From Bispira polyomma (taxonomy: Eukaryota), in assembly GCA_965649765.1 (NCBI GenBank), contig OZ287756.1:682001-746000 (forward strand): a DNA stretch of 64,000 bases, read 5' to 3'. Position 1 is the stretch's first letter. Each line of letters opens with the position of its first letter. Positions 1 to 59,800 of the stretch are shown here, one piece after another. A model generated the notes under the pieces. It had not been told where the DNA came from. It worked only from the letters and a program-made list of their open reading frames with translations, and did not search any database. The position numbers and the translations under genes are program-made.

Positions 1-1863
1 ATAATTAGAGATCAGTAATTCCTGACTAATGTGGTGCCAATTGCAATTTTTAAGGAATGTTACTTTTGTCGTATTTGTGCCACCAGAGTGCGCCCAACGA
101 GAAAGGATATCGGCATAAATATTTGTGACTCCACTAATATGTTCTATGGAAACATCTATGTTATGCTTTGCTTGCAATAGCCATAGTGTGTGTGCACAGG
201 CATTTAAAATATCATCCCTACAAAGCGCCCTATTAAGAACATGAACCACTGCCATATTATCACAGTGAACAGCTATTTTTAAATTGGACCATTGTTTAGT
301 CCACAAGCAAAATGTGACCACAATATTTACCATCTCAAACTGAACAATGGTCAATGTATTGTGATATTCTTGTGGAATGTTCATCCAGTAAACATTATTG
401 TTCCAAAAGGCCCCCATTGCACTTAGCAAGGCGTCCATAAATATATGGTGTGTAGCTTCTGACACTCTATTCATAGCCGTGATACCATTGTACTCGTCTA
501 GGAATTGGCAAAACCAATTAATGTCTTTGTGGAAATCAACTTTTAGCCCTATAGAGACATTGGGGTGGTTCCCCTTAGTACTGCTAAAATTCTATTCACA
601 AAGAGCCTTGCTGGATTTACACAACTATGGATGTAAATGAATTTACCCAGTAGTTTTTGCAGACTCCGTCTGGTAGCCTTAGCCTTTGTTGATCATTGTT
701 CACACAATTGTTTTGCTTCTAATAATCTATCCGTGGCAAGAGTCAATATTCCTGTTTTGGCATTAATATTGATACCTAGACAGGTGAAGCTTTTGGTGGG
801 TGCATCTACCTTATCTTGATTTATTGGTAACCCAAGATTGAGAATTAGATATTTTCGTGTGATAAGCGTTGTTAGCCTTTCCTGGGGGCGCAACTCCTAT
901 ACAGTCATCCATATACGAACAACACCAATGGTTTTTTTTCAACATGAGGTATGTAATTATGTCCGATGTAATTTGGCAGGCGCATGTATCAGAGCGTAGG
1001 CCAGAGGGTATGCTGACATCAACATAGTAATTATTATTTCAATTTAGGACCAGGACGGGTTGGTCAAATGGATCGACCTTAAATTCATATAAGCCGGTTG
1101 CAAATCAATTTTGTACAACAACGTTTTGGGCCCAAGCCTGGCTATTTTGTCTACTATGTTATCTATAGTCGGATATTTTAATTCGAATTGAATATCATCA
1201 AACGCGTTTAGGGAATACCAGAGTTCACACTTGTGCCATGTGGCCACGAGAGATTAACTATAATGCGTCTTGAAGCATTTGGTTTTGGCCATGACATCAT
1301 GGGAGAAACATGAAATGGTTTATAAGGAGGGTCTGTTTAAGGCTCGACAAAGCTTTGTATTTACTCTCTGTGTTTTAAGTCTCAACTAAGTCTGGGAAAT
1401 TTACTGCAGAAGCATGATTCTCAGGACTTTGGTTGTACTGAAAAGCACTATAGTTCAAGGAAAGGGGAAATCCATATTTCAAATATTCGCAGAGTAGAGG
1501 GAAATCATAATCATCTATGTACACACGCCAATTATCAATGTTTAGCTGAGAAGGGACTGGCACCCTGGCCTCTTTATAATTAGCCACATCTCGCAATTGT
1601 GTTGCATTATGTCCCTCCTTTACCCATTGTAACATATCATTGTTATTCAACATGCCAGTATAGTATGTTTGAGACACATTCTCCCCAAGCTTGGTAGTAG
1701 TTCTGTTACCTTTTAACTTTAGATTTGTATCTCTAATGTACCACTCACAATAGCAATCCCCTAGGTGTTTATTCCCCCAGAATTGGTTCAAAACCCCAAA
1801 GCTGTAAGAGCCGTTTATATGTATCAAGACAGGAATTGGGAAACAAGGTGTACTAGCTACCAC
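1..1863 (-). pseudogene. DIRS copy 1 RT/RNase H (frameshifted)
   Basis: ORFs 1375-1863, 1044-1247, 693-893 plus the open-ended RNase H frame. Confidence 0.85.
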
Positions 1864-2490
1864 TGATCCTTCTTCACCCCTGCTTCCTGAGTAGCAGGAT
1901 TCGCTTTAACTTTGCGACTGCATTTTGATTCAGGATGTACATAGTTCTTGTGTACTGTCCTATAACAATACCCGGACGAGTGTTTGAGAAGCTTTCCTCC
2001 CTCGTAGTGGTCACCTTCAAACTTACAGTACCCTTTTGAGTATTTATTGCACACTACTGCTAATGTAGCCTGCTGGCTATTTGGTTTTAATGAGCGTTGT
2101 GCAAACCGTTGTCACACTCGGTCGATACCATCAAGGTCCTCCCAAGATAGATTGCCCAGCTCAATCTCTAACTAGATGTCTGCATGTGCCCTTTTGGTTG
2201 TGGGCCATGAGAGATCCAGCGCATCTTGCATGAGCAAGTATTGATAGTGTAACATATGTTCTTTTTAATTTCTGGGTCCCTCTCGTGTAGCATACACCAG
2301 GCGAAGCCCAGAACCCATTGAAAGATGTTCAGTTCCTCGTATGTGGGCATTTTGAGATTCTCACCTGACATACATAGCTCATGTGGCCATGGGATGAACA
2401 CTTTAATCCTTTGATCACCAATCCAGTATCTACCAGACTTAACAGTACGTGTAAAACCCATACCTGGAATGTCCTCTCACAAGAAGTCCT
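1857..2490 (-). pseudogene. DIRS copy 1 gag C-terminal remnant
   Basis: Two ORF pieces homologous to the gag of copies 2 and 3 (KS[G/Q]R, WP, QWV, Cys/His cluster). Confidence 0.8.
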
Positions 2491-3510
2491 CATATTGCTT
2501 CATTCTGGGTTTATTGAGTTAAACCCAGAATAAAGCACTGGGGGCATTTTAGAACCCCAGGAGGGAACTTTTGGCGGGAAAATGTGGTGACCCCAGTCCC
2601 TAGCTGGTGAACCCTTTTTATTGATACTGCTAACAAAGTTGACAAGTTTGTTTGCCTACAATAGGTTCAATGTTTGACACTTTGACAGGGTGACAAGCTG
2701 ACTAGGTAGACCTGTTGTGGTCTACTTGTTGTTATACTAAACCCAGTAAACTTATCCCCTGATGCTACTCACTGTACGCAATCAAAACATTTATCCGCTT
2801 TAAACCGTCACTAGGTTTTTGATGCCAAAATGTCAAACACGTCATAAACCCCTAATTCCAACAAAAGAAAATGTCAAAATCTGGCAAAATGTCTTCATTA
2901 ACTTCAACAATTTTGCAACAATAAATATCAGGTGCAGCTAAAAAATCTTGCTTACAAAAATGTCAATTATCGTTTGGAAAAAGTGCCAGTTCACGGCAGT
3001 ATATAGTGTCAAAAACTGTGAAAACGTTCAATTTTAGTCACAAATATACTGAAAACATTGTAACCTGTCGCATGGTTCAAGTAATTTCTGGTTATTAATT
3101 ATTTTTATTCTCAGAACTGAATTGCTGAATTTGAGTAAACTGTATCTAAATAATTTGTAACAGTGGGGGACTGTCTTATACATAAAATTAGATAACCAGA
3201 AATATTATTTATTATTTTAATATAGAGCATTACCTTTCAAGCAGAATTTTAGTATGAACTGATTTTAAAAAGTTACTTTGATAAGTATAAAAATATCTTT
3301 AAATCATTGTCTTTGGTATCACAAATAAGTCAAAATACAACGATTATGCCGCACAGTTCCCCTGTGTAGCAGGCCAAGGGATTATTAAAGAATTCTTAGC
3401 TTCTTAGTTTAACCAAGCATAAATAATAATGAGCCCAGTTTGCGGTAATAATATTTATTAGTTACTATGTTAAAACACTAACAGCTAATATTTACAGTAG
3501 AGTTTGAGGT

Positions 3511-3756
3511 GGGCATAAGGTCACCATAGCCTAAGGCTTAAAAAGGAGTTTAAGTTGAAATTTTACTTTTAGTCCAAACTTAAACCTTAATTTAAGTAAA
3601 TTTTAACTTTAAGTCCAAACTTAAGCATTAAGTTGAGGATTTGAGTTTTAGTTCAACTTAATGTGTTTTTGTACGTTCAACTTAAATTTTTGGTTTTAAG
3701 TTGAACGTATATTTTAAGTACAATCTGTACTGGTTACTAAAGGTGACCTTATGCCC
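3511..3756. repeat. Inverted-repeat cassette 3' of YR, DIRS copy 2
   Basis: Perfect 15-bp IR GGGCATAAGGTCACC (3511-3525) / 3742-3756; inner perfect 15-bp IR 3672-3686 / 3695-3709. Confidence 0.9.
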
Positions 3757-3806
3757 TGGGACAGTAATAACTTTTGTTACTGTCTAGTTGACTGTTATAA
3801 ACATAT

Positions 3807-4835
3807 TTATCTTGTTTTGTTCCAGATTTCCCTAAACATAAAATGTGTTAGACCACCAAACCCCAATAACCTAGGAGTTATGTAGGATGGAAGCCCTAAA
3901 GAATCCGCCACCTGGGACCCAGCAAACGCCGAATCAGTAATATATCTCCAGACGCAGTCAGACGTCCAAGTGCCCTGTCTCTGTATATCTTGGATTCTGA
4001 CATTATTATTAAATGCGAACGTGGCACCTGAACGTCTGAAAGCATGAAAAGTGAGACCAGTATGCTCACAACCTAACATTTTCAGAACATTTTTTAAATG
4101 TCTACGTACTTTGGAATCAGTGAGCGGAACCCAATTTTGCCCACATTTGAACTGAAAGAGGGGAAGATTACCCCCTTGAGGAGTGATGGCCAGGACATTT
4201 TTAATAGCTGTAACTGGGCAGATGCTGGAACCAGGAAGGGCTGGAATGGTTATAAGCTTAACAACATCTTTAGTTTGAAGGGTTTTTGACCACTTCACCA
4301 ATATAACAGCATAGCCTGGTTTAAACATAATGTCAGCTCGTGCTAGCTGTTTCAAAGGGTCAAAATCCCTGACAGAATGGGGGCACAGATTTGACAAACG
4401 CAGGAAACTGAAAAAGCTAGTTAAATATACAGCTTTGAATACTAGTCCCATATACGTTACATTACATTTCTGGATTAATCTTTCCAGCAGTGTGATATCA
4501 AACAGTGACTTCAATTTTGCTTGCAGAGGTTTACTGACCGCCAGAGCCTTGTTAAAATACTTAATTCTGGTATCGGAAAATGCTTCTACTTGTACATGAA
4601 ACAACACACATTTAGCCTTTATAGCAGAAAGGTAGTTTGCAATTTGTGAAGCTGATACTTTATTACTGTACAAGAACTCTAAAAAGGAGAGCAACTGCAA
4701 TACATTCACCTTTTTCGGGCTCCAATCCATGAAGATCCCAAAAGCTATGAAGGTCCTGAACATTCTATCATACGCTCTAGAGGTAGACAGAGAGAAGGCT
4801 CTGTGAGCTCTTTCACAAGCCTGTCTAGCCAACAT
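3807..4835 (-). CDS. Tyrosine recombinase (YR) of DIRS copy 2
   Basis: 342-aa ORF with the catalytic set FLRLSN (R), KWSKT (K), FHAFRRSGAT (HxxR), QGTWTSDCVWRY (W, Y). The extreme C-terminus is probably frameshifted. Confidence 0.93.
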   Translation of the reverse strand: MLARQACERAHRAFSLSTSRAYDRMFRTFIAFGIFMDWSPKKVNVLQLLSFLEFLYSNKVSASQIANYLSAIKAKCVLFHVQVEAFSDTRIKYFNKALAVSKPLQAKLKSLFDITLLERLIQKCNVTYMGLVFKAVYLTSFFSFLRLSNLCPHSVRDFDPLKQLARADIMFKPGYAVILVKWSKTLQTKDVVKLITIPALPGSSICPVTAIKNVLAITPQGGNLPLFQFKCGQNWVPLTDSKVRRHLKNVLKMLGCEHTGLTFHAFRRSGATFAFNNNVRIQDIQRQGTWTSDCVWRYITDSAFAGSQVADSLGLPSYITPRLLGFGGLTHFMFREIWNKTR

Positions 4836-4882
4836 AAACTCTCCCGGGTGAATGCCTGCAATATATACTATACCATAATTAA

Positions 4883-7439
4883 TTATATGTTCTCATTAAC
4901 ACTGAGCAATGCATCATGCACGGGCAACCATTGGACAGGGCCTAGCAAGTCATGCAATACTTTGTGATCTCTGTTGGTATCAGTCCATCTGGACAACAAA
5001 TCTGCTACTTTGTTTTTTACCCCCAAAATGTGAATGACTTTAATGTCGATGTCAAGTTTACTGACTAGCATATAAATATTGCACGTGTATGTGGCTAAAG
5101 TAGGATCCCTTGTAGATCCGCTTTGCAAAACAGTAACAACTGCCTGGTTATCACACTTAATTAATACACGTTTATTTTGCCAGAGCCGGGCCCATAGTTT
5201 AATTGCCACCAGTATGTTCAACATTTCTAGGTACGCTATGTTTAGTTCAGTCATATGAGTCGGGAGCTTTAGTTGGTACACTTGATTTTGATAAACCCCC
5301 CCCATACCTTTCAAACACGCGTCGAGCTCTACTTGGGCTGTAACTGGAATATGAGAGAAAAAGGAAACGCCATTAAATTGCTGTATAAACACAGAGAACC
5401 AATTTAAATCTCTCCTGAATTCCTGAGTTATGTTTATACGTTTACTGGTCTGATTGTCTCTCAACAACTGAAGCATACGATTTAAGAACGCCCTTGCATA
5501 CTTTACACATTTTGACACGTAGAGTAACAGGCCTAGCAGGGATTGAAGTTCCCGTTTAGTACAAACATTTTTTGTTTCCCATGCTTTGCACGCATTCTTG
5601 ATTGCTTGCAATTTTTTCAGGTGGAATCGAGGTAGTGAGGTGAACTGTGTCTATAGTAATACCCAGGCAGACCACAGATGTGCCAGGATGTACTAACTTT
5701 TTCTCACTGACGGTTAAACCGAGCTCTGTCAAGAGTTCTTGTAATCTCATATACGTTTTCTGTATTTTGCTGGGAAGCGAGACACATAAAAAATCGTTAA
5801 TATAATTGTGGACGTTATAAATTTTCTGTTTTCATAATGTACCTCACGGCATCCGAAATTCTTTGAAAAATTGTGCTGCCGTTCTGATAACCGAACGGCA
5901 GCAATTTATCTGTGTAGTATTTTGTCCAATTTAATCCTAATAGGTCTAGGTCACCAGGATCTATGGGCACGTGACGAAAGGCCCTACTAACGTCCACTTT
6001 AAAGATATGACAACCTTTACCCATTTTAATGACTTCTTGCGTTAGACTGTCCACTGAAGGATATGACAATAGAAACTCAGTGCCTAAATAAGAAGTGGGG
6101 GATACCCCTGCATTTACTGAGTGTCCTTGCGGCCAACTAAGGTCCACAATGACTCTTCTGTTTTCCGAATTTGCTTTATTTCTCGTCATTAGGGGGGGAG
6201 CAATGTAAGTTTCTGATGGGCGGGTCTTCAAAAGGACCTAACATGGCCCCCAGTGCACATTCTTCTGCCATATAGAAGTTTACATGAGTGGGGAATTCAG
6301 TCGCAGATTTATGATTATTTCCATCATTGCGAGTTGTATTTTCTCGACAAAAATCTAACGGAAAGCCATGCTTGATCAGTAAAGGCAACTGTCCCAATAG
6401 TTAATCAAATATTTGTCCCATGCTTTAGTATGTAGCTGCGATTTAACCTGGAGCTTAAGGCCATTAAAGTTAAACCTGCCATCCGCCCTGACACGCTTAT
6501 GTATTTGTAACACGTCTAGTTGTTCAGTTTTCGTGTTTTCTGTGTTATCAATGGGCATGAAATCAGAGAGGGGTGTGAACCCATAAGCCACATCATTCTA
6601 TGCCTGCCAACTTTTGTAATTGTCATTATCTTTTGCCAAGTCTAATAAGAGACCTTTGTTTTTCCTCTGTTTTAGTTCCCATGTGTATTTATCTGAAGGT
6701 ACAATGTACTCATTAGTATTGTCCTCCTTATTAACGTTCTCTTTAGTAGCCAAGCCTGTGTGCAATCTGGTGTTATTGTTCTGAAGCAGGCCTTGGCCCT
6801 TTTGTTGGCTTGGCGCCATTTACCACCATTGCTGTGTTCTGTCTGTGTGTTAGCCCTTGCTGTGTTAACACTAACAGGCCCAGTGTGAATGGCACTTCTG
6901 CCCCTCTCACTACACCTGACAGACACTTTGTGTTTTTTGTTCTTTATTATGGCAACTTTTACACTGGGAATTTCAGATTGATTGTTGTCCCCTTTCCCCA
7001 TTGTGTCAGTGTGAGCCAGAATTGCAAACCTATTATGTAGTGGGAGGGAACCCCGGGTTGAATTGTGTTCACACCTCCTCCCATGTTTCTTGTACACCCC
7101 TTTTGTCCCTTTGTCAATAGCACTCACAATAGGATTGATTTTGTTCACGCCTACCTGCGCTACACCGCTGGGTGAATTCACTTTGTCACACTTGTGCACC
7201 CTACTGTGTGTATTACCTGTTTGTAACCCTCTGTGCATGTGACTTTCAATAGATTTAGTATTGTTAGTACTCTTTTTTACTACGTCGCTATACTTGACAG
7301 AAATACTCTTGCCTCTTGAACATTTTCTGTACAACCGACTTTTGAAATAAAGCTACATCCCTAAACTGCGTATTATATACAACTCTAGTGAAGACTTTGT
7401 TGTTCACATTTTGATCCACTGCACTTATGCAGTGGCCCC
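4883..7439 (-). pseudogene. DIRS copy 2 pol (linker + RT + RNase H), multiple frameshifts
   Basis: RRVIVDLSWPQGHSVN, KVDVSRAFRHVP, LPFG, NYIND (catalytic D>N, ~5795), LDACLKGMG, KCDNQAVV, HILGVKNKVADLLSRW. Confidence 0.93.
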
Positions 7440-7449
7440 TTAGTTTTTT
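7416..7449 (-). promoter_or_regulatory. Candidate -1 ribosomal frameshift signal, DIRS copy 2
   Basis: A_AAA_AAC in the gag frame, 7-nt spacer, stem CCACTGCA-TAAG-TGCAGTGG. Confidence 0.7.
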
Positions 7450-8419
7450 ACTGCCTTTTTGGGGCACATGCTGCTCCTGTGACTACTGTCACAGGTTTCG
7501 CATGTATGTTTATAGAACTGCGTACCGGTTTTATGACTAGCCGAATGTTTGCATGTGCCATCCTGAAAATACCGACACGTGACCGTCCCCTGTTTGAAGT
7601 TATTTTTCTTTTGACTATTTCCCAAAGTACGAGTGCCTGCCCCTATACCGGGTTGACCTGAATGCAAATGTCTCTGAGCATGGGCTCTATGGATTCTGTC
7701 TACCTTTTCAATGTCGGACCATTTTAACTTGTCCATTTCCATATTCGTAAGCACGACTGCATGGCAAGCTTTAGCAGCCTCCCAGGAAAAATCCTGGGCA
7801 TCCTCCATCAAGCCAGCCATGTAGTCGAGCATAGCATTTTTATTCTCTTCCGATTTCTCTTCTTGTATTATTCTCGTAAAGCCACACACCCATTGAACCA
7901 CAGTTAAGTCATCATAGCTGGGACGTGCTTTGATACTGCCCGATAGAACATGATTGTGGGGCCATTCTACAGTTCGTTTAACCAGAACTTCCGATCCCCC
8001 TCCCCTCTGGGATTTGATCTTACCTTGGGAAGGGCTCTCGTTAATTTGTCATTGGGAACAATACTGGTCTCAGGTATTTCGGCGCTCTGACGGCTATCGC
8101 CCAAGTTTACAGAACTGACCCTCGAGACTGAATTTTCACTTGCCTGATTGTTAGAATTTCCCGCCAGTGCTGCCTCTGTGAGCTGAACCAGTCGATCCAT
8201 GCTCTGAACTGCCTGACTAATCGACTGCAACTGTTTCAATATAACAGTCGACATATCTCCCTCACCAGACACTGACGCTGAATCCGACGGGTCCACCTCA
8301 GCTGAGTCAGCACCTGCATTCTCCAAAGATATGTCCAAAACATTACAATTTCGACCAACAGGCCTTGGGTGTTTCCCCAAACATTTGGAGCAGTACACAC
8401 TCGAACAACGTGGCATCAC
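7440..8419 (-). pseudogene. DIRS copy 2 gag
   Basis: N-terminal CSKCLGKHPRPVGRNC; GKIKSQRGG..VEWPHN; C-terminal CRYFQDGTC..H..HTCETC..H..C. Internal deletion/frameshift near 8050. Confidence 0.88.
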
Positions 8420-8439
8420 TGAGAATTATAGAAGCAACA

Positions 8440-10232
8440 ACTAAAAGGGCAGTCCATATTTAAGAAATTTCAGTTTTAAGTGGGCTGATACTGGACCCTG
8501 CCATGAGGTAGAACTCACTAAGTGCCAATATCCCAAACAAAATCACCATAGTTGAAAGCATTGAGGCCCCAAGATTGTAGACTAGTATTTCCTGATAACC
8601 TTTTACATGTTAAAAACCCTGATGTGGGGCCAGACTAAACACCCAATTAATATGCACAGGTTCATTTGGGGGTTAAGTGTTTCTTGGTATGTCCAGGGTT
8701 TGTGGCCCATTCCATGTAATGGTCTCTGCACAATTAGCACAAAACGACAGTGATATATCTTGACTGTATTGCAATAGCATTGCAAACTAGGAACATAGTC
8801 TGTCCATGTAAAAAGCAAATATCTGTCTAGGATGGGGGGGCACCCCGAGTATATTGTGAACATAAATAGTAAAATGGGGCTGGGGTTGAGGGGTCCTAGA
8901 TTCTCCCGGATCTGCCAATGAACTTGAATTTAGTTGTGTTTGCTTCACTTTCAACTGCTAAGGTTTTATCATGATTGGCTGATTTAATTGGTTGTTGGAG
9001 GAAAACAGTTCTGAAGCAATGTAACCCAATGATATATGACATTTAGCTGACAATCTTTCAAACATGAAGTAACAAAATATGTTGCTCCTTTGTTGGGTTA
9101 CTGAAATAGTCTGCCTTGAATCTTGCATAATTGCAAACAATTTTTAAATGTTAATAAGACCCCTGCAGTCTTTGTTGATTGTGTATATGTTTGTCTGAAC
9201 GAGAGGGTTTTTGTTTGGTCTGTGTATTATCATTGCTTTGTGTTGTGCTCATCCTCTCAAATCACAGACAACAATTACCATTTTTTCCAGGTAGAAAACG
9301 CCAAATACCCCTATGTCTTTTTTTGAGGACATTAATAATGTCAATGTACTTCGACTGCCTAAGGTCATGTGTAAAGGGTTACTTTGGCACTCTATAATGT
9401 CTGTGATTTAAATTTAAAACAAGCTCATTGTGTGTGTAGGTCTGTGGAATAATTCCTATAATTGGAACATTGTGGTAAGCCATTGGGGTCCTTTGACGTC
9501 ATCCTGTCTTCTAGAAGGACATGAAGGTAACCATCTCCTTGATTGGGAAATGTTCAGATGTCATGATCTCCAGCAGTGGATGGAGATATAAGTAGCTTTT
9601 TTTAAGTAGTAGGAGGGTTTATTGTTTAGAGAAAACAATAACAGGTATTCTCAGAAATACATGAGGACTAAAAGAGGACAGGTTATTTGAGGTTAATAAG
9701 AAAGTTTGAGTAGCTTCCTGGGGTAATCTCAGTGTGAATTTTTTGGTGGAGTGGCGGTTGAATGGCGTGTGAGTCTGACTAACCTATTATATGATAGACC
9801 ATATTACAGTGGAATTTAAGATTTAGTTGGTCCTCATTTCACAACGGTTGGATTTAATGTGAATAAAACCTGTGCTGAAGCACACTGTAAGCCACCGAGC
9901 TAAGGCAAGTACCTAAAAAAGTTTCCCTCATGAAGGTACAAACACAATACAGACTCACATTGGGGAGAGGCCACAGAACGTATCCCCATATCTTAGGTGT
10001 ATTTATTTTTTTCACATTCAGTTCATATCAGTGTAAAACCTCTATATAACGGTCCAACCAAATATATTCACTAATCAGAGGTACCTTACAATTAACACAA
10101 ATATCAAAACTGAACCAGAAAGAAGTGTTCACTATATTGAGGTGTTCACTATAGCAATGGTGTCAACTCTGTCAGGATATGTGACCTCATCACACTGCCT
10201 TGGATGTTGTTATATTTAGACAATATGGCTGA
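8440..10232 (+). repeat. 1793-bp direct duplication, copy 1 (X1)
   Basis: Matches 12109-13901 at offset 3669; no differences spotted; ORF translations identical. Confidence 0.97.
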
Positions 10233-12108: not shown

Positions 12109-13901
12109 ACTAAAAGGGCAGTCCATATTTAAGAAATTTCAGTTTTAAGTGGGCTGATACTGGACCCTGCCATGAGGTAGAACTCACTAAGTGCCAATAT
12201 CCCAAACAAAATCACCATAGTTGAAAGCATTGAGGCCCCAAGATTGTAGACTAGTATTTCCTGATAACCTTTTACATGTTAAAAACCCTGATGTGGGGCC
12301 AGACTAAACACCCAATTAATATGCACAGGTTCATTTGGGGGTTAAGTGTTTCTTGGTATGTCCAGGGTTTGTGGCCCATTCCATGTAATGGTCTCTGCAC
12401 AATTAGCACAAAACGACAGTGATATATCTTGACTGTATTGCAATAGCATTGCAAACTAGGAACATAGTCTGTCCATGTAAAAAGCAAATATCTGTCTAGG
12501 ATGGGGGGGCACCCCGAGTATATTGTGAACATAAATAGTAAAATGGGGCTGGGGTTGAGGGGTCCTAGATTCTCCCGGATCTGCCAATGAACTTGAATTT
12601 AGTTGTGTTTGCTTCACTTTCAACTGCTAAGGTTTTATCATGATTGGCTGATTTAATTGGTTGTTGGAGGAAAACAGTTCTGAAGCAATGTAACCCAATG
12701 ATATATGACATTTAGCTGACAATCTTTCAAACATGAAGTAACAAAATATGTTGCTCCTTTGTTGGGTTACTGAAATAGTCTGCCTTGAATCTTGCATAAT
12801 TGCAAACAATTTTTAAATGTTAATAAGACCCCTGCAGTCTTTGTTGATTGTGTATATGTTTGTCTGAACGAGAGGGTTTTTGTTTGGTCTGTGTATTATC
12901 ATTGCTTTGTGTTGTGCTCATCCTCTCAAATCACAGACAACAATTACCATTTTTTCCAGGTAGAAAACGCCAAATACCCCTATGTCTTTTTTTGAGGACA
13001 TTAATAATGTCAATGTACTTCGACTGCCTAAGGTCATGTGTAAAGGGTTACTTTGGCACTCTATAATGTCTGTGATTTAAATTTAAAACAAGCTCATTGT
13101 GTGTGTAGGTCTGTGGAATAATTCCTATAATTGGAACATTGTGGTAAGCCATTGGGGTCCTTTGACGTCATCCTGTCTTCTAGAAGGACATGAAGGTAAC
13201 CATCTCCTTGATTGGGAAATGTTCAGATGTCATGATCTCCAGCAGTGGATGGAGATATAAGTAGCTTTTTTTAAGTAGTAGGAGGGTTTATTGTTTAGAG
13301 AAAACAATAACAGGTATTCTCAGAAATACATGAGGACTAAAAGAGGACAGGTTATTTGAGGTTAATAAGAAAGTTTGAGTAGCTTCCTGGGGTAATCTCA
13401 GTGTGAATTTTTTGGTGGAGTGGCGGTTGAATGGCGTGTGAGTCTGACTAACCTATTATATGATAGACCATATTACAGTGGAATTTAAGATTTAGTTGGT
13501 CCTCATTTCACAACGGTTGGATTTAATGTGAATAAAACCTGTGCTGAAGCACACTGTAAGCCACCGAGCTAAGGCAAGTACCTAAAAAAGTTTCCCTCAT
13601 GAAGGTACAAACACAATACAGACTCACATTGGGGAGAGGCCACAGAACGTATCCCCATATCTTAGGTGTATTTATTTTTTTCACATTCAGTTCATATCAG
13701 TGTAAAACCTCTATATAACGGTCCAACCAAATATATTCACTAATCAGAGGTACCTTACAATTAACACAAATATCAAAACTGAACCAGAAAGAAGTGTTCA
13801 CTATATTGAGGTGTTCACTATAGCAATGGTGTCAACTCTGTCAGGATATGTGACCTCATCACACTGCCTTGGATGTTGTTATATTTAGACAATATGGCTG
13901 A
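12109..13901 (+). repeat. 1793-bp direct duplication, copy 2 (X2)
   Basis: Matches 8440-10232. Confidence 0.97.
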
Positions 13902-16759: not shown

Positions 16760-18130
16760 TTGCATTGTATTGTATTTTACATTTTTAATGCGCCTTATTG
16801 ATGCTAGGGATCTTCTGAGGCGCAACATCAGAATCAATCAGCCAATAAAAAATGACAAAAACATAGCCAGGTTGTAAGGATAGATGCGTCAGTGCCCAGG
16901 AAGAGGACTACGTCGGATGGGCTAGCCTAAAGAGATAAATTTTAAGCCTTTTGCTAAAACCAGAAAGCGTATCAAGCAGTCTAAGTTCAACTGGAAGACT
17001 ATTCCATATTATAGGGGCGGCTACCGAGAAGGCTCTAGATCCAACCCTCTTAGTGGGTTTATTAGAGGAAACAGAGAGTCTTTTGCCCCTTTTAAGGCTG
17101 CTGAAGGAGAGCTTAGTAGCGAGGTAGTGAGGCTGTTGAGAGACAACAGCTTTAAAATCAGTTTTGTCAGGGTTTAGTTTCAGTTTGGAGTAGTTCATCC
17201 ACGCCTGAACTGAGGAGAGACAGTCGGCAAGTAAATCCAGGTTGTATCCGGCATTCTGAGTGTTAAGGGAGAGATAGATTTGAGTGTCATCAGCATATAT
17301 GTGATGTTTAACATTGTGATTATTGATGACTGCACTGAGAGGATGGGAGTAGAGAGTAAACAGTAAAGAGCCGAGAACCAACCCCTGGGGTACTCTAAAT
17401 GGTAGGTTAAAAGAGGATGGAAAGTGGTAGCCAAATTTGATTTTTTGGGTTCTATGAGCAAGGTACGATTTGATCCAATCAAGGACAGTACCATTAAGAC
17501 CAAACCACTGCTTTAGGTTGTCAAAGAGTAAGCGATGGTCGATGGTATCAAAAACTGCGAAGAGATTGAGAAGAGTGAGGGCTACAGTTTCATTATAATC
17601 CAAGGCAAGGTTAATGTCATCACTGATTAAAAAGAGAGCACTTTCCGTGTAGTAAAATTTTCTATAGGCAGATTGGTGGCAGTTTGCTAGATTTTGTTTA
17701 TTAAGGTGGTTATGAATTTCTTCAGCAACAGCTTTCTCAAAAAGTTTATATACAAAGCTGACGTTAGAGACTGGTCTATAGTTTTTTAGTCCATTTTTTA
17801 AGGCCTGGTTTTTTTCAGTAGGGGGCGACATATGCAGTTTTGAAACAGGAGGGAAATATACCATCTCTAAGCGAAAAATTTATGATATTGGTGATAGGAG
17901 TTATGAGAATGTCTAGACATTCTGTGAGAACAGCAACAGGGATAGGATCTAGTTCACAGGGTTTGATGTCATTAGTTTTTATGAGTTTGAGAACATTGTT
18001 TTCGGAAAGTGGGTTAAAATGTAGCAGATTTGAGACTTTATAGCTAGGGGATGGTGGAGAGAACTGTAGCATTGTTGAAAAACCTTCTCAAATTTTAGTT
18101 ATTTTTTCAATGAAAATTTTTCCAATTTTC
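16760..18130 (-). mobile_element. L2/CR1-group LINE, 5'-truncated, internally deleted
   Basis: CELDPIP, NYRPVSN, QSAYRK, FDTIDH, VPQGLVLG, YADDTQIY, LKLNPDKT, RAFSVAAPIIWNSLP; 3' UTR with (TACAA)n tail. Confidence 0.93.
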
Positions 18131-44210: not shown

Positions 44211-44583
44211 AAACAAACATTTTAGGCAAAGTATTGACATAGATACAGCCATATTCCGTCCTTTATCCCCAAAAAATCCCCAAAAAACTGTCTTTGACCG
44301 ATTTTGAAAATTTGGTTCTCGATTTTCTTAGATTTAAATGTTTTCGGATGACGGAATTGGACGTCCAACGTAATAACACACAATGCGTACTTGATTTGTA
44401 CTCATTGACCAACAGTCTTCTAATTGTAATGTGAAACATGGTCCTTCTCAGTAAAGCAATGGAAACAGTGCCCTGACCTTGAGTTGGATTTTGACCTTCA
44501 GTAAGACAAGCAGTTGGGATAATATTTTAATCTACTTCTACACATATACTTAAACTGTTAAAAATTTAAATTTTTTATAATAA

Positions 44584-44793
44584 TTAAGGCCACCTTAGTG
44601 CGATGAAGATAAGGTTAGTGTAAGTTCACATTAAGTGTGACTTAAATTTAAGGTGAACATAAAGTAAAATTTTGATATTATATTTACAGAATGTAAAGGT
44701 AATCTTAAAGTTTTACATAGTTTAAGTCTGGCCTTAGCCTTACATTTCTCTATTTAAGGTTACCACAAAGTTTAGACTATAAGGTGGCCTTAA
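44584..44793. repeat. Inverted-repeat cassette 3' of YR, DIRS copy 3
   Basis: Perfect 14-bp IR TTAAGGCCACCTTA (44584-44597) / TAAGGTGGCCTTAA (44780-44793). Confidence 0.9.
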
Positions 44794-44857
44794 GTAAATT
44801 AGAAAAAGTTAAAGCTTGTAAAATATAATAGATAAGAGAGTAACCACCAAGGCCCAA

Positions 44858-45849
44858 CTAGACAGTAGGGGACGGGTTAAGGAGAGACTGAAGGGCCAGA
44901 GCTACTTGGTCGGAAGCAGCGTGGTCTTGAGTTATGTACCTCCATACGCATTCAGACGACCAAATGCCCTGGCTCTGAATGTCCTGGAGGGGGACATGGG
45001 CATTGAAGGCCAGTGTCGCTCCAGAGCGGCGGAAGGTATGAAAGGTAATATTAGCCTCTGATTTTCCTGCCCTGGTAAGAATATTTTTTAAATTTGAACG
45101 GATTTTAGAGTCTGTTAATGGAATCCAGGTGAGATTATTCTTAATTTGAAACAAAGGAGAATTTGTGTTACCAGGTGTGATGGTAAGTAAAACCTTTACA
45201 GCCCTGACTGGGCAAATGATAGTATTCTATAAAGAAGGAATTTTTATTACCTTAATGGTATTTCTGGACTGTAAGGTTTTTGTCCACTTAATAATGATAT
45301 GGGCACCAGGAGGGGCGAAGATTATGTCAGCCCTAGCTAACTGGTGTAAGGGTGAGTATGTAGCGATGGAGTGGCGGACTAGATTCGAGATACGAAGAAA
45401 GGAGAAGAAAGCTAAAAGGTAGGCAGCTTTATATATTTGTCCCATAAACATGGAATCACATATTATTGCTATCTTTTGCAACAGTTCAATATCAATGATA
45501 CCATTTATTTTTGCTCTAAAGGGTTTCTGTAAAATGAGAGCTTTCTGAAAGTATTTAATTCTCTGATCTGCAAAGGCCCCCACTTATAATCCAAATAACG
45601 ACATTTGGGCCTTAATGGCTGAGAGATAATTAGATACTGAAGTATGAGAGGTATTATTGACCACTAGCACCTCTAAAAATGCTAGTAATGACAGTGGAGT
45701 AACATTCTCAATAGAAATGTGAGCAAAACATCAATAGGCTAAAAATACTCTAAACATGGCTGAATATGCCTTTTGAGTAGATGGTCGGAAGGCTTGCTGA
45801 GCTCTATTGGCTGCCCTGTCCACAAGCCTAGTCACCCAGGTTGAAGTAC
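44858..45849 (-). pseudogene. DIRS copy 3 tyrosine recombinase (stop + frameshifts)
   Basis: AFRPSTQKAY, FLRISNL, KWTKT, FHTFRRSGAT, QGIWSSECVWRY. Confidence 0.93.
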
Positions 45850-45865
45850 CTGAAAAATTTTACAC

Positions 45866-48225
45866 CTAAATAGACCAGTTTATGTCTAGGAGGTCATCTT
45901 CGATCTGAAGCCATGTGGGATTTTCCATTACTTGACTTAGTTTGTGTTTGTTATTGGGTGTAATTGTCCATTTAGAGGGGAGATCAGTTATAATGTTTCT
46001 TTTACCTAAGATATGTACGGTTCTGAGCTCTATGTCGGCTTTTGCCGCTTCCATGAAAATATTTCGAGTCATAGCGGTCAAGGTGAGATTATAGGTCTTA
46101 CCTGAATTCAAAATTGAGACTATGGCCTGGTTATCACAATGAACCAGTAACTTTTTGCCTGACCATTGATTTTTCCAGACTTTTATGGCAACTAAAATAT
46201 TTAACATTTCCAAATGTACAATGGTATAATCTTGAAAACCCAGAGGGATTTCTTTGGTGTAGACTTTATTATTACAGCAAACACCTAAGCCCTGAAGGCA
46301 GGCATCCAGGTGGACTTTATTAGTAACCAGTTTGTGATCAAAGAATGCTACTCCGTTAAAACTAGTGAGAAACATATTAAACCAGTTTAAGTCTTGCTGG
46401 AAAGCCATGTCTAATTTTATATTGTTAGCTTCTCTAGCCCCTCTGTGTCTAACATCCTATTGAGGTATGCCCTCGAAGTTCTGACACATTTTGAGACACA
46501 AAGAAGTGAACCTAAAAGTGATTGAAGTTGTCCTTTTGTACAAACTTTTTTGTCTTTCCAAATTTGACATATCTGCTTGATTTCCTTTAATTTGGCATCT
46601 GGAATTGAAACTGTGAAGTCCTCAGTGTTTACTAGGACACCTAAACATACTACTTTGGTATCAGGGGCTACCACCTTTTTCTCACTTATAGCAAAACCGA
46701 GTCTATGAAAAACTTTTTTTAATAACTCAAATGATTTGGAGACTGTGGCCGGAAGTCCGTAAGCAATGACGTTGTCGATATAATTTATTACGTCGCGACC
46801 CTTTGACGTCATGATAAACCTTATGGCGTCACTGAGTCTTTGAAAAATGGCGCTACCATGGCGATGGCCGAATGGGAGACAAGTGTCAATATAATAGTCC
46901 CCAAGTTGTAATCCTAGTAAATCATAGTCTTCTGAATCTATTTTTACATGTCTAAATGCACGGCTAATATCCAACTTGTACAGAAGAGAACCTTTGCCTA
47001 ATTTAATTATATTTCTAGTAATGTAGAGTCAAAATAAATGGAGTACCTAAGTATTGTTCTTTTTCTATGGCTGAGTTTACAGCACAACCCTGTGGGAAAC
47101 TTAAGTCAATAATCACTCTTCTATGTTTTGCTTCCGGCTTTGGGTGTGTCATGAAAGGTGAAACGTGAAGATCAGGTAATGGAAGTTCTTTAAAAGAACC
47201 AATTATCACCCCAAAGTGTTTTTCCTCCTTAAGATAAGCCTTGACGTCGTCTTTATATTGAATAGCCAAACTATGATTATCCCCCTTGTTTTCTGAGGGA
47301 GAGGCTCTATCAAAATCTAAAGGGAATCCAAATTTTATCAGATGAACTAATTGGCGATCCCAATAGTGTTTCAGTAGAGTTTCTCACTCTGCAACATTTT
47401 ACTGTGATTGAACAGGAATTTGAGCGCCTAGGTAATTTGGTAGGCTATATCTTTTTTAACCATGTTGTTCTTTGCACGAGCCTTTACTTGTTTGGGCAAT
47501 TTTGCATCCCCCAAGGGAATGAAGCCAAACTTTTCTTTATTTTAAACATTCCAAGACTTAAACAGAGCATTAGCTTGTGCCATTGACACAGCGTCTCTAT
47601 GTTTCCTTTTAACTTGTAATTGGAGTTCATATTTATCCCCCATTTGTAAACTCGAGTTTGTTTGATCAGAAGTGTTTACATTGGTTTTACTATCATTATC
47701 ATCATCTGACAAGTTCTGAAGGGTTAAGAACCTATTGTGACAATGTATTTGATTGTTGACACTTTTTGTTACACCTTTATGAAAGGTGCGACTTTGACCA
47801 TTGTTACCCAGTTTGGACTGAGAAGGGGGGCTTTTTTGGACAAGTTGGGGTTTCACACTTTCCCGGAAGGTGTGACTTTTGCTTTTTACATCTGAAATTC
47901 TGTAATTGAAAACATTATTTGAACACACATTTGAATACATTTTGTTCTTAATATGTGGGTGACAACTGGAGGCCCGACTTTGTTTATAGATTTGTTCTTT
48001 TCTATTTTGATGTTGGTACTGATTACCCTTATTTTGAGCCACAACTTGTGCCTAAGATTTATTTGCAAACCTAGCCCAATTGGCCCTCCAGTTGTCACTG
48101 CATCCAGCATACACATTTGCATTATGTACAATCTTTGAAGAACAATACTTAGTTTGATCTTTGATATATACAGTATTAGTACAAGTATCTAATATGACAT
48201 TTGTGCACTGCTGTACTGCAGTGCC
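45866..48225 (-). pseudogene. DIRS copy 3 pol (linker + RT + RNase H)
   Basis: RRVIIDLSFPQG, DISRAFRH, CLPFG, NYIDN, LDACLQGLG, HCDNQAIV. Confidence 0.93.
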
Positions 48226-48238
48226 CTATTCGTTTTTT
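48205..48238 (-). promoter_or_regulatory. Candidate -1 ribosomal frameshift signal, DIRS copy 3
   Basis: A_AAA_AAC in the gag frame, 7-nt spacer, stem GCACTGC-AGTACA-GCAGTGC. Confidence 0.7.
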
Positions 48239-49287
48239 GCGACATTTGTTTCTAAACCTTTGACTTTATTTCTGTGACAATCCTTAGATGCATGGCGAAA
48301 GGATTTGCCTATTGTAAAGCAAGTGGAACAAACGTGTAAATACATTTGTCCTTTAGTCTCGTGATCCGCTTTGTTTGGGCACGAACCCTTTTGAAAGTAC
48401 CTGCAGGGGATTCCCCTATCAGTGCTGGCCCTAGTTTTGCTATATTGAGATGAAGAAATCGTATTGTTGATAACCTTTTGGGCATGTGCCCTTCTTATCC
48501 TATCGATTTTGGCAGTTTCATCCCAGGAAACCTTACCCTCTTCCATGCGACATAATAATACCGCATGGCCGCTTTTCGCAGCTGGCCAAGAAAAACCGTG
48601 GCAATCCTCCATGAGATTCTGGACATAGTCCAGCATTGCATTTTTTGTGTCAACATTACTCTCATCCCTTACTATGGAACAGAACCTTGCTACCCACTGA
48701 GCCATTGAAAGGCTAGCGTATGTTGTCCTGGATTTAGCAGTACCACCCAAAATGTTATTCTTAGGCCACGCAACCTGACGTTTGACCCATACAGTTTCGT
48801 TTCCCCCTCTTTGAGACTTGAAATTACCTTTCTCGTTTAAGTTGGCTAGATCTCGCAGTCTGGAGTCAACAGCATTCTGGAGGTACTCTGATTTCTTCAG
48901 TGTCATCAGAGAAGGAACCAACGTATCATCTGTGCTCACAGCCACTGCCGGAACTGCCGGGGGGGGTGGGAACCATCATCGGCGTTGGAGCCGCCTGACT
49001 CGCACTAGCTGTCGGCACGGGAAACACAACAGGAGCAGGATTTACAGGGGTTACAGTAGAACTATTAACACTTTGTCTATTCTCAAATTGCTCTACTCTC
49101 TTTTCCATGGCCGACATTCTGCCACTAAGGCCTTTAAGTTCTTCCAGAATATGTGCATTGATAGACATATCAGAAGTGTCATTATAGTCATTGTTCTGTG
49201 GTTGGTTTACAAACGGACAGTTATCATTAATTGCTCTTTGTGGCTTGATTTACAAGCTCTACATTCATGATTTGCACGGGGTGCCAT
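48226..49287 (-). pseudogene. DIRS copy 3 gag
   Basis: MAPRANHECRACKSSH (CxxCxxxH); GNFKSQRGG..VAWP; CRYFQKGSC..H..HVCSTC..H..C. Confidence 0.9.
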
Positions 49288-50477
49288 TCTATAAATATAA
49301 ATTACACACTGCTTTGGGAGATGCGGATTTTAAGTTGAGGTTGTGATGCTTTTGAAAATGAATATATAATAAATTTCAAATCAAATTAAGTACAGCCCTC
49401 AACTGTAGCCCTAAACAAAGAGCAAAATTCACATATGTCAAAGCAATGACAAACAACACTCCAGTCAGGTGCCTGCAAGCTTCAGTCTATATCCAAACTG
49501 CAACCATCCTATGCCTATAACACAGATAATAACTCGGTTACTTATAATAACCATTTAAAAAGTAATATAAAAGCAAGAAGTAAAAAAATAAAAGTAAAAA
49601 TTAAAAGAATTGAAAGTTTTAAAATGGCGTTGTGCCCTTCCAAATTCTAATTTTAAAGTGAGGTTATTGAGATTTTAGCGGATGTAGGCCAACTGCCAGC
49701 CAATCACTGTAAGAGGTCACTTAAACCAGAATAGATCTTAAAAATATAATTAGGGTCGGCACTGAACCCACTATCCCCGTTGAGACTACCTAGCACAATG
49801 CAGGACTATAGAAATTTCTACTTTAAAACTGACACTTTCTAACATTGAAAGGAAATAAGGCAAACACATTCTTGTATTGTCTAATTATTTTGATGTATAT
49901 GGCAGGGTAAATGCCATCTCTTCATTTATTTCAAGGCTGTCAACAAATCTATCTGCAACAACACTCCAACTGTCCACACAGTAATATCTGACACAAATTG
50001 GGAAACCTGATCCCACAGATTGGTCATAAATCAGTCCCTAGTCCAGGAGAGCAGATGGTCAGGATACCCGATTACCCACTTATTCTGGTTTAATGTTGTA
50101 TCAATGTTGTGTAAAAACCAAGGTGGTTGGCGAGTATTTTCTATATGATATGATATAGTAGCAATTTAAATAAATTTTAGACCATATACCATATTTGAAG
50201 ATTGGGTACTAGTTATCGATTACACTCACCAGCAAAAAAACTTGTCAGCCCCTGTTTCAGTGGCTACACATTGGATTTCCACATAATTATGTTTAAATGT
50301 ATACATTTAGGTCTGTTGGACAATGATATTTTTTGTTTACTTATGCTACTCGATCGTATATGCCTTGTCTGTGTAAATATGTCCCAACTGGTACTCTGAC
50401 AAATAGAACCAGTTCATTTGGCATTTTACCTATAGTACCAAGCCTTTGTGTAGAAAACCTACCAAGGTAGTGAATAA

Positions 50478-56854: not shown

Positions 56855-59800
56855 ATATCAATGTTTTGTGCCAAAAGCACTGTGGATTTTAGAGGTCTAT
56901 CAATCTTGTCCAACTTTTATGGGTGTAAGATTCAATACAATGAAGTAAATATCACTCAGTTGAACAAGCCTACCAATATACACAAGAGACTACAATAGGA
57001 TATGAAGACATAGCCGGGAAAATACATTCCTCAAAAAATGGGAGAGAAGCAAAACTGGTATCAAAGGAGATTCCAGAGGATGAGGCATGGGACATCATTA
57101 AGCTTGATGTGATGTCAGATCTTGTGACAATGAAAATGGAGTCTTGCCAAGAGTTTCAAGATGCTCTACTTCACACAGAGAACCAAATACTTGCTGAGGC
57201 CATATCTGATTGCTTCTTTGGGAATGGGTTGTCTCCGGAGCTCACTCGGTGTACTAGACCAAGTAATTACCCAGGAAGAAATAAACTTGAGAAGTTATTG
57301 ATGGAGCAAAGTGTCTATCAACTTTTGACTAAACTTGTGACAACAAGGGCTTCAGTACAAGATGAACCAGTATCACACAATGACAGTGTATTTATTCATA
57401 AAGAAGGAGATTTCCCAAATGGACTGACCACTTAAAACACATGTGATTTAAGAGACATGCATACAATACCACAAATTGATTCTTCAAAGGAAGCTACCAC
57501 ATCAACAGTAAAAGAACAAAGAATATCAAGAAACATCAAAAAAGTTACTTCTGCTGTTCGATCCTCCAGTGTACCAGTTAGAAAGTCACAGGTGGATATG
57601 TCAGTGCAGGAGGCAACAAGTGATATTACAAAGATTGGTATAAAGAAATATTTAACTCCAAAAAGACACTCTCTTGCACACTTACTAGGATATGCACCAC
57701 AGAGGATGCCGATCGATTGTGGATCGATTGTGGCATTATAGAAGTAAAATCGTTAACATTAGTGCCGGGAGTGTAAAGTGATTCACTTGTTTACTGATTC
57801 ATCTCACTCAAGGGGTGTTTGTGTTATGTTATATGATCACTTAAAATCAGACATTTTGGAATATCATACTGATCAACAAGGCAGAAAGTTCTTTGTTAAA
57901 ATCAAAATTGGAGCAGATATATATTATATCATAAATGTATATGCACCCAATAATATTACTGAGAGAAAACATTTTTTTATATCACTACATGAATGGGTAG
58001 GGCATCATCTTGCTGATAATTACTATGTAATACTTGCGGCCAATTTCAATACTGCCATAAATAAGGAAGATGAAAAGTCAGGTATAATTGACTCCTGTTC
58101 TAAGCCATTAGTAACCCTACTAAATAATCTGGGTGTCATTGATGTATGGAAAAATCAGAATCCTAATATTATTGAATATACATGGGAAAGTCCTGGTAAC
58201 TCAAACTTTAAAAGTAGAATTGAGTATATATTTTTATCAAAAGAATTGTTGTCACTAACTGAAAAATGCTTAATTGCCCATGCTCCTGCCTGTGATCATA
58301 AAGGAGTTCTTTTAAAACTGAACAACAGTCATGATAAACGAGGTCCTAACTATTGGAAATTAAATATTTCTGTCTTAAAAGATGAAAATTATTGCACTAA
58401 TAAAGAAATGTTTAAAGAATATGTTTGACCAAGTTTACAGGAATGTACAAATCTGTGTATGAGTAAAGGCACAACATGGGGTCTCTTTAAAATAAAGGTT
58501 AAAGAGTTCTCCATCAAATATGGTCAGGCAAACTCAAAAAATACTAAGGATGAAATTGATCAAATGGAACAAGAAATACAAATATTAAACAAAGCTATAA
58601 ATAAAACAGATAGCCATATATTAAGAACAAAAAGGGAGAGATAAAACATAACATGTTAAAATTAATAAATACTAAAGCAGTAGGAGCACAAATACGTTCA
58701 CGTGCCAAGTATGTAGAAGAAGGTGAAAAATCGACATCACATTTTCTCAGATGAGAAAAACATAGGCAAGCTAATAATAAAATTTCAAGGTTGATATCAG
58801 ATGGAAATGTAATAACAGAAACTGGTGACATATCAAAGAGTTGTGAAACATTTTATAAGAATCTTTACACAAGTACACAACCAGACATTAGTGATATAAA
58901 AAAACATTGTAAGTAAATGTAAATTACCTAACATCTTGACTGATGAACAGCAAGATGTATGTGACAGACCTATAACACTGGATGAATGTACACAAGTTGT
59001 TTATGAATGTATGAAGCCAAACAAAACCCTTGGATTGGATGGGATTCCTTTTGAATTCTACAAAACCTTTTGGCCATCACTAGGTTCATTTTTGCACAAG
59101 GTTATCGAAAAATTAAATTTTTAAGAAACATTTTGGCCAACACTAGGTTCATTTTTGCACAAGGTTATCAAAAATTTTAATTTTTGGGAAACATTTCAGC
59201 GTTGGGTTAAAATACTTCATGCAGAGCCTGAGGCAATTATCAGAAATAATGGATGGCTTTCAGAGGGTTTTAACCTGTCTAGAGGTAATTGACAGGGTTG
59301 CCCCCTCTCTGCACTATTGTTTATTTTTGCTGTAGAAATGCTTGCTATAATGTTGCCACTTGACAAAGGCATTAAAGGCTTTAAAATTGTGCAAAATAAA
59401 CAAGTAAAGACAAATAAAATTTCTCAATATGCGGATGATTCGGTCATTATACTTCAAAATATTCAACAGATAAAACCCATCTTGGAAACTGTAAACAAAT
59501 TTGGTGGACTTTCTGGACTAAAACTTAACCTTGACAAAACAAAGGTTATTTTGCTGGTGCGTTGGAAGGATCTATGGCCAGCTGTGAAAACATAGAATGT
59601 GTAGATATCATTAAAAGTTTAGGAATATACGTTGGAAATGACAAAGACTTATGCATTAAAATGAACTGGACAGACAAAATCACTACAATGGACAAACTGT
59701 TACAAAGATGAAAAGAAAGGTCACTCAAACACTATTGGGAAAAATTTTGATTATAAAAACCCTAGTTTTGCCAATAATTCCCTTTTCAGCATTAAACTGC

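Follow-up and report, generated by a model that had tools for sequence, protein, structure and literature searches.

Decayed retrotransposon copies in the window

The window, that is, the whole stretch of 64,000 nucleotides of Bispira polyomma DNA that was analyzed (contig OZ287756.1, positions 682,001 to 746,000), contains three copies of a single kind of element, all of them decayed and on the minus strand. They are retrotransposons of the tyrosine recombinase (YR) type, and their features are as follows.

1..2789, minus strand: copy 1, clade II, deleted and running off the window; donor CAG|GTATGG, intron start 2463
3354..8446, minus strand: copy 2, a decayed YR retrotransposon; repeat A1 (5' end) missing, 3' limit where B1 ends (by blastn with L034 and L031)
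3354..3856, minus strand: copy 2, repeat B1, matching B2 of L034
3807..4855, minus strand: copy 2, tyrosine recombinase frame, predicted exon 2; weak Pfam matches to Phage_integrase and SAM-like, Cre-like model of a relative
4855..4861, minus strand: copy 2, putative splice acceptor TTGCAG|G, phase 1; intron end 4856
4856..8023, minus strand: copy 2, predicted intron of 3168 nt with gag-C and all of pol, placed by its coordinates
4883..7455, minus strand: copy 2, pol (RT, RNase H), broken; stop at 4885-4883
7417..7449, minus strand: copy 2, heptamer A AAA AAC where gag stops, with a hairpin after it; predicted signal for a -1 frameshift into pol
7440..8023, minus strand: copy 2, gag-C with a helical domain and two C-terminal zinc fingers
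8018..8026, minus strand: copy 2, putative splice donor AAG|GTAAGA, phase 1; intron start 8023
8024..8416, minus strand: copy 2, gag-N, coding part of predicted exon 1; CCHC zinc finger, coiled coil, and start of the PSxxFL helix, interrupted by a deletion of 64 nt
44465..49801, minus strand: copy 3, clade III, decayed; donor 48827, frameshift-type signal 48206-48238, acceptor 45850

The original prediction proposed that the recombinase is expressed by splicing from gag. The donors on which it was built, CAG|GTATGG (2463), AAG|GTAAGA (8023), and AAG|GTAATT (48827), are present, and each splits a Gly codon after its first base. The two acceptors, TTGCAG|GC (4856) and TTTTTCAG|GT (45850), are likewise found in phase 1 of the YR frame, 27 nt and about 16 nt past the RNase H stop, respectively. 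As an example of splicing, copy 2 does have the sites, but it is decayed: compared with L031, its closest relative, it lacks 64 nt at 8051/8050 (blastn), which shifts the donor out of the frame set by the copy's own gag start. Being frameshifted upstream of the donor, copy 2 cannot make the fusion, and the test therefore needed relatives. Most of gag-N is gone from copy 1, whose YR falls beyond the limits of the window.

Element family and class

The host assembly contains hundreds of related copies. Our sample comprised 120 long loci and copy 3 of the window (121 records), with loci picked for long open frames and variety rather than at random. Complete copies read A1-gag-pol-YR-B1-A2-spacer-B2 with direct repeats, as in L085 (A1 2249-2401, B1 6997-7453, A2 7454-7606, B2 8336-8793), and the same arrangement, with the internal repeats 3' of YR, is found in L034, L084, L087, L092, L096, L099, and L106. 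Gag, RT/RNase H, and YR follow one another in that order on one strand.

The DIRS label of the original prediction did not hold in its strict sense, as the terminal repeats are split and direct, whereas DIRS1-like elements have terminal repeats that are inverted, together with an internal complementary region. Gene order, the A1-ORFs-B1-A2-B2 repeats, and the lack of a methyltransferase are those given for Ngaro-like elements (order DIRS) in the definitions taken from PMC4157794 and PMC8547959. The elements share split direct repeats and a Gag zinc finger, here with invariant Cys/His columns, with the PAT-like echinoderm form (SpPat1) as described in PMC4157794, but PAT encodes a methyltransferase after RNase H. 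In the three pols searched, only the RT and RNase H families of Pfam were matched, and pol stops after RNase H, with 6-35 nt left up to the acceptor and no room for such a domain. The elements are thus Ngaro-like and not DIRS1 proper, an assignment made by published layout definitions. They differ from the Ngaro-like description in carrying a putative splice acceptor, Gag zinc fingers at both ends, and no constant -1 overlap of YR with pol. This overlap with the RT/RH end, quoted for Ngaro in PMC13003380, describes the group more than it strictly defines it, and PMC3783388 states that the frame varies in fungi.

In a quick YR tree, clade II (copy 1) stands deeply apart from clades I (copy 2) and III (copy 3), at about 30% identity. 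The residues R153, H271, R274, and Y305 are conserved in the YR alignment, and the YR model resembles Cre from end to end, with a two-domain fold for which Cre is the best match (E 8e-8, TM 0.65). Relatives were not found in viral or prokaryote collections, nor was a solved structure found by sequence search.

Many copies (among them L035-L037, L041, L044, L056, L059, L083, and the window copy at 3354) stop exactly where B1 ends, without A2-spacer-B2, as recombination between B1 and B2 would produce. L031, L034, L044, L045, and L059 are inserted inside tandem satellite arrays. Repeat A also contains a TCCCGCCA-like motif with TCAGTT upstream of it, present in both clades read (5' leaders of L085, L034, L081, L103, L099, and L096; window 2573-2580); we take this motif to resemble an E2F site.

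A conserved donor in gag

The linker motif of Gag could be read in 96 records, and 93 of them carry the donor G|GTA. Its Gly codon is GGT in 16/16 families, whereas at 24 other conserved degenerate gag columns the commonest third base reaches at most 57%. The flanking residues vary (Q, S, P, T, or K before; K, M, T, I, or N after) while the flanking bases, A and A, are constant, and the resulting A-GGT-A pattern occurs at only 2 of 117 other Gly codons. Position -3 is A or C in 29/29 families. Further into the putative intron the consensus is looser, with G at +5 in only 8/29 families and a mixed +4. A donor this weak beyond +3 would leave much of the RNA unspliced, as expected if most of it must stay unspliced.

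No other G|GTR site is shared by all of the 16 intact gags scanned; the runner-up, at a conserved Trp-Val, occurs in 10. The motif was recognized in 102 of 120 outside gag homologs, many of which may derive from a single other assembly; the linker Gly is present in 101 of the 102, followed by R, T, K, M, or N in 98 of the 101.

With respect to the protein, the donor falls after helix 130-147 in a low-confidence linker between predicted Gag domains (weak model, mean pLDDT 59). The original prediction placed a CxxCxxxH zinc finger in the N-terminal part of Gag; a finger is indeed there, but it extends to C-x2-C-x3-H-x7-C, with four invariant ligands in the alignment. Given the position of the donor, a fusion protein would keep this CCHC finger, the coiled coil, and one helix, and would lose the helical body and the C-terminal fingers. 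The coiled coil has a nearly invariant R-V-x-x-x-E, which resembles the RhxxhE trimer motif of LINE-1 ORF1p. Fold searches with Gag gave only matches of Z 6 or less, and the Atlas search returned unnamed clusters only.

A conserved acceptor before the recombinase

The YR start could be located in 118 of the 121 records, with an AG at the homologous split codon in 113. Among the five misses, the AG of L089 is displaced by one base because of a downstream indel, and the other four are further decayed. The 113 copies fall into 33 clusters that share less than 80% DNA identity (mean 50%), and one copy per family was counted; L099 and L100, one family split by a deletion, count as two of the 33. 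The motif TTnYAG is present in 33/33 of these families, which are related and not independent events. Selection of the sample favored the AG but not T-6, T-5, or Y-3, each of which is also found in 33/33 (Y-3 being C in 17 and T in 16), and TTnYAG occurs at only 0.29% of pol positions. Otherwise, the spacer from the pol stop to the AG varies (6-35 nt among the 25 families with a placeable stop). A branch-point-like YTRAY lies 5' of the acceptor in 21/33 families, against a background of 25%, partly within RNase H codons. In outside YR proteins that reach far enough upstream (22 of 120, a loose test), an F/Y/L-rich run followed by a pair of the type SG, TG, LG, or SD was mostly seen.

Site and phase in intact copies are thus conserved across three deep clades, as the original prediction required, and by family counts the conservation of donor and acceptor exceeds chance and is far wider than the window shows. 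The predicted intron measures 2416-3744 nt in 92 copies.

In more distant metagenome loci (L111-L115, L119, and L121, about 30% YR identity), YR is likewise preceded by a pyrimidine tract and a phase-1 CAG|A or CAG|G, and three gags of this kind carry AAG|GTACG, also in phase 1. In three of the loci, however, the candidate donor is found some 25 codons further along, which counts against the fusion reading. In L113 and L114, gag and pol form one frame separated by a single stop.

Start codon and reading frame of the recombinase

The first in-frame Met of YR is at residue 30 or later, or absent, in 22/33 families, none of which has an in-frame Met upstream, in agreement with the predicted lack of a conserved ATG. 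A start at such a Met (residue 30 or later) would drop model helices 4-18 and 23-43, as it lies within or past a core helix. It could be argued that YR is nevertheless translated alone, either by reinitiation past the pol stop or by use of an internal promoter and a start that is non-AUG or variable; the two motifs would then be other RNA or DNA signals. The 11/33 families with a Met within the first 15 codons and the complete Cre-like fold modeled for the YR frame by itself would suit such an explanation. We consider it decidedly improbable, given the 22 families that lack this Met and two motifs that are in the same phase and follow the splice consensus at positions that were not selected.

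A second possibility is a Gag-Pol-YR polyprotein made by frameshifting or readthrough at the end of pol. For Ngaro, Poulter and Butler 2015, as quoted in PMC13003380, took YR to be probably made by frameshifting, and here most families have a YR frame that either overlaps the final few codons of pol or shares the pol stop. But the pol stop stands in all three offsets to the YR frame (13/7/5 among 25 families), L051, L056, and L096 have a second stop in the YR frame 3' of the pol stop, and a conserved slippery site was not seen at the pol end, unlike at the gag-pol junction. A polyprotein would also account for neither TTnYAG nor the frozen GGT, and we regard this option as highly improbable. 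Frameshifting, readthrough, and an internal ATG do not fit YR, since it has neither a conserved ATG nor a fixed frame relative to pol.

The gag-pol junction serves as an internal control, as here the frame is fixed within each clade and a recoding signal is kept. In clades I and III, A AAA AAC stands at the gag stop and precedes a hairpin of 7-8 bp, in which one C-G pair is swapped for G-C between the clades, with pol in the -1 frame; this is a predicted -1 frameshift signal. It is found in 54 of the 93 donor-bearing copies, a total that includes clade II copies, which lack it. In clade II (L091-L110, L122-L141, the family of copy 1), Gag ends in R/K-V-stop, always encoded as GTT-stop, and pol is in +1, which suggests a likely +1 frameshift at the stop codon. 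Clade II has thus switched its type of recoding, yet it kept both splice sites. A second splice acceptor leading into pol was also considered and set aside, as the frameshift signals fit better and no YAG column was shared near the pol start beyond the GCAG of the hairpin itself.

Proposed expression of the Gag-YR fusion

The sequence comparisons support the original proposal of a spliced fusion of gag-N to YR. In this Ngaro-like family, the phase-1 donor in gag and the acceptor before YR are probably joined, giving a GagN-YR protein read from the gag start codon. A single transcript would start in repeat A1 and encode Gag. Left unspliced, it would yield Gag and, by programmed frameshifting, Gag-Pol, and would also be the template for reverse transcription. 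The host spliceosome would remove about 3.1 kb, namely gag-C and pol, from a fraction of the transcripts, and the spliced RNA would encode a predicted GagN-YR of 480-550 residues, including 150-215 residues of Gag. The shared Gag head, with its zinc finger and coiled coil, might tether YR to Gag in the particle or aid target choice, which is a guess.

We infer the pairing of donor and acceptor from their phase and uniqueness and from the lack of another start. As phases would match by chance in one case of three and the junction is itself inferred, the acceptor could be real but joined to some other exon upstream (from a leader donor, a host exon, or a trans-spliced leader), with the gag donor serving some other event. 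An exon devoid of an in-frame ATG would leave YR startless in 22/33 families, though. In addition, the six 5' leaders read have no common donor, one of them having no GGTR at all, and the gags, pols, and YRs scanned have no second donor common to all. This arrangement is therefore improbable in our estimate.

Regarding the joining of gag-N to YR, sequencing reads from three runs cover an intact relative evenly over the whole element, including the A2-B2 spacer. This suggests that the reads are DNA, and it says nothing on expression; the donor-acceptor joint is not among the best 15 of 64 joints in these DNA-like reads. By open-frame length, no intron-less DNA copy was found among the 150, 124, and 150 YR matches and the 150 and 150 gag-N matches listed (the lists overlap). 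One candidate, L122, with a long YR frame (680), still has the intron layout; 37 of 40 exon-end matches also run on into the intron, and L127 keeps the donor. The absence of intron-less copies would fit a packaging signal in the intron or a cis preference, and it removes a possible proof. No annotated Gag-YR fusion protein was present among the matches listed, and the extension of P0354, a candidate, is not gag. These protein records look like ORF calls on DNA, and so could not hold a spliced product.

Relation to known systems

In retroviruses and in Drosophila gypsy, env is a third ORF expressed from a spliced subgenomic RNA that drops pol, and gag-pol is made by recoding; some of these env proteins take their first codons from gag. 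In the elements described here, by contrast, the spliced product would be the integration enzyme, and it would keep 150-215 Gag residues with folded domains. The short GAG RNA of plant Ty1/Copia elements, in the account that we draw from PMC5580714, is a case in which conserved alternative splicing balances retrotransposon proteins. It differs in that splicing with early termination gives Gag only, and integrase comes from the full-length RNA. Spliced expression of YR was not reported in the literature searched, and GagN-YR is new in that literature; Poulter and Butler 2015, Goodwin and Poulter, and the Repbase notes lie outside it.

If the fusion is made, it alters which protein should be studied, explains why gene callers scatter the start methionines of YR, and gives the host a splicing switch on integration. 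It would also offer a route by which ORF1 could steer insertion, and a link between ORF1 and insertion was suggested for Cafeteria Ngaro elements in PMC8547959. More tentatively, and with slightly less than even confidence, we propose that splicing to a Gag head is the general mode of YR expression in animal split-repeat YR retrotransposons, the head delivering YR into the particle and helping target choice. Annotated YR ORFs of this group would then be the second exon only, and the enzyme a chimera of a zinc-finger/coiled-coil head and a Cre-like recombinase. The retroviral three-product plan (Gag, recoded Gag-Pol, and a spliced third gene) would have been reached independently, with the integrase as the spliced product.

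Other features of the window

An exact duplication of 492 nt (8440-8931 and 12109-12600) begins at the truncated 5' end of copy 2, and further near-identical repeats are found at 10230 and 15637. A fragment of a non-LTR type reverse transcriptase lies at 16908-17879 on the minus strand. At 56944-58428 on the plus strand, a frame with a NADAR domain (Pfam E 2e-16) stands directly 5' of an endonuclease-like frame that has no Pfam match; judging from these frames, this is probably a LINE with NADAR in its ORF1.
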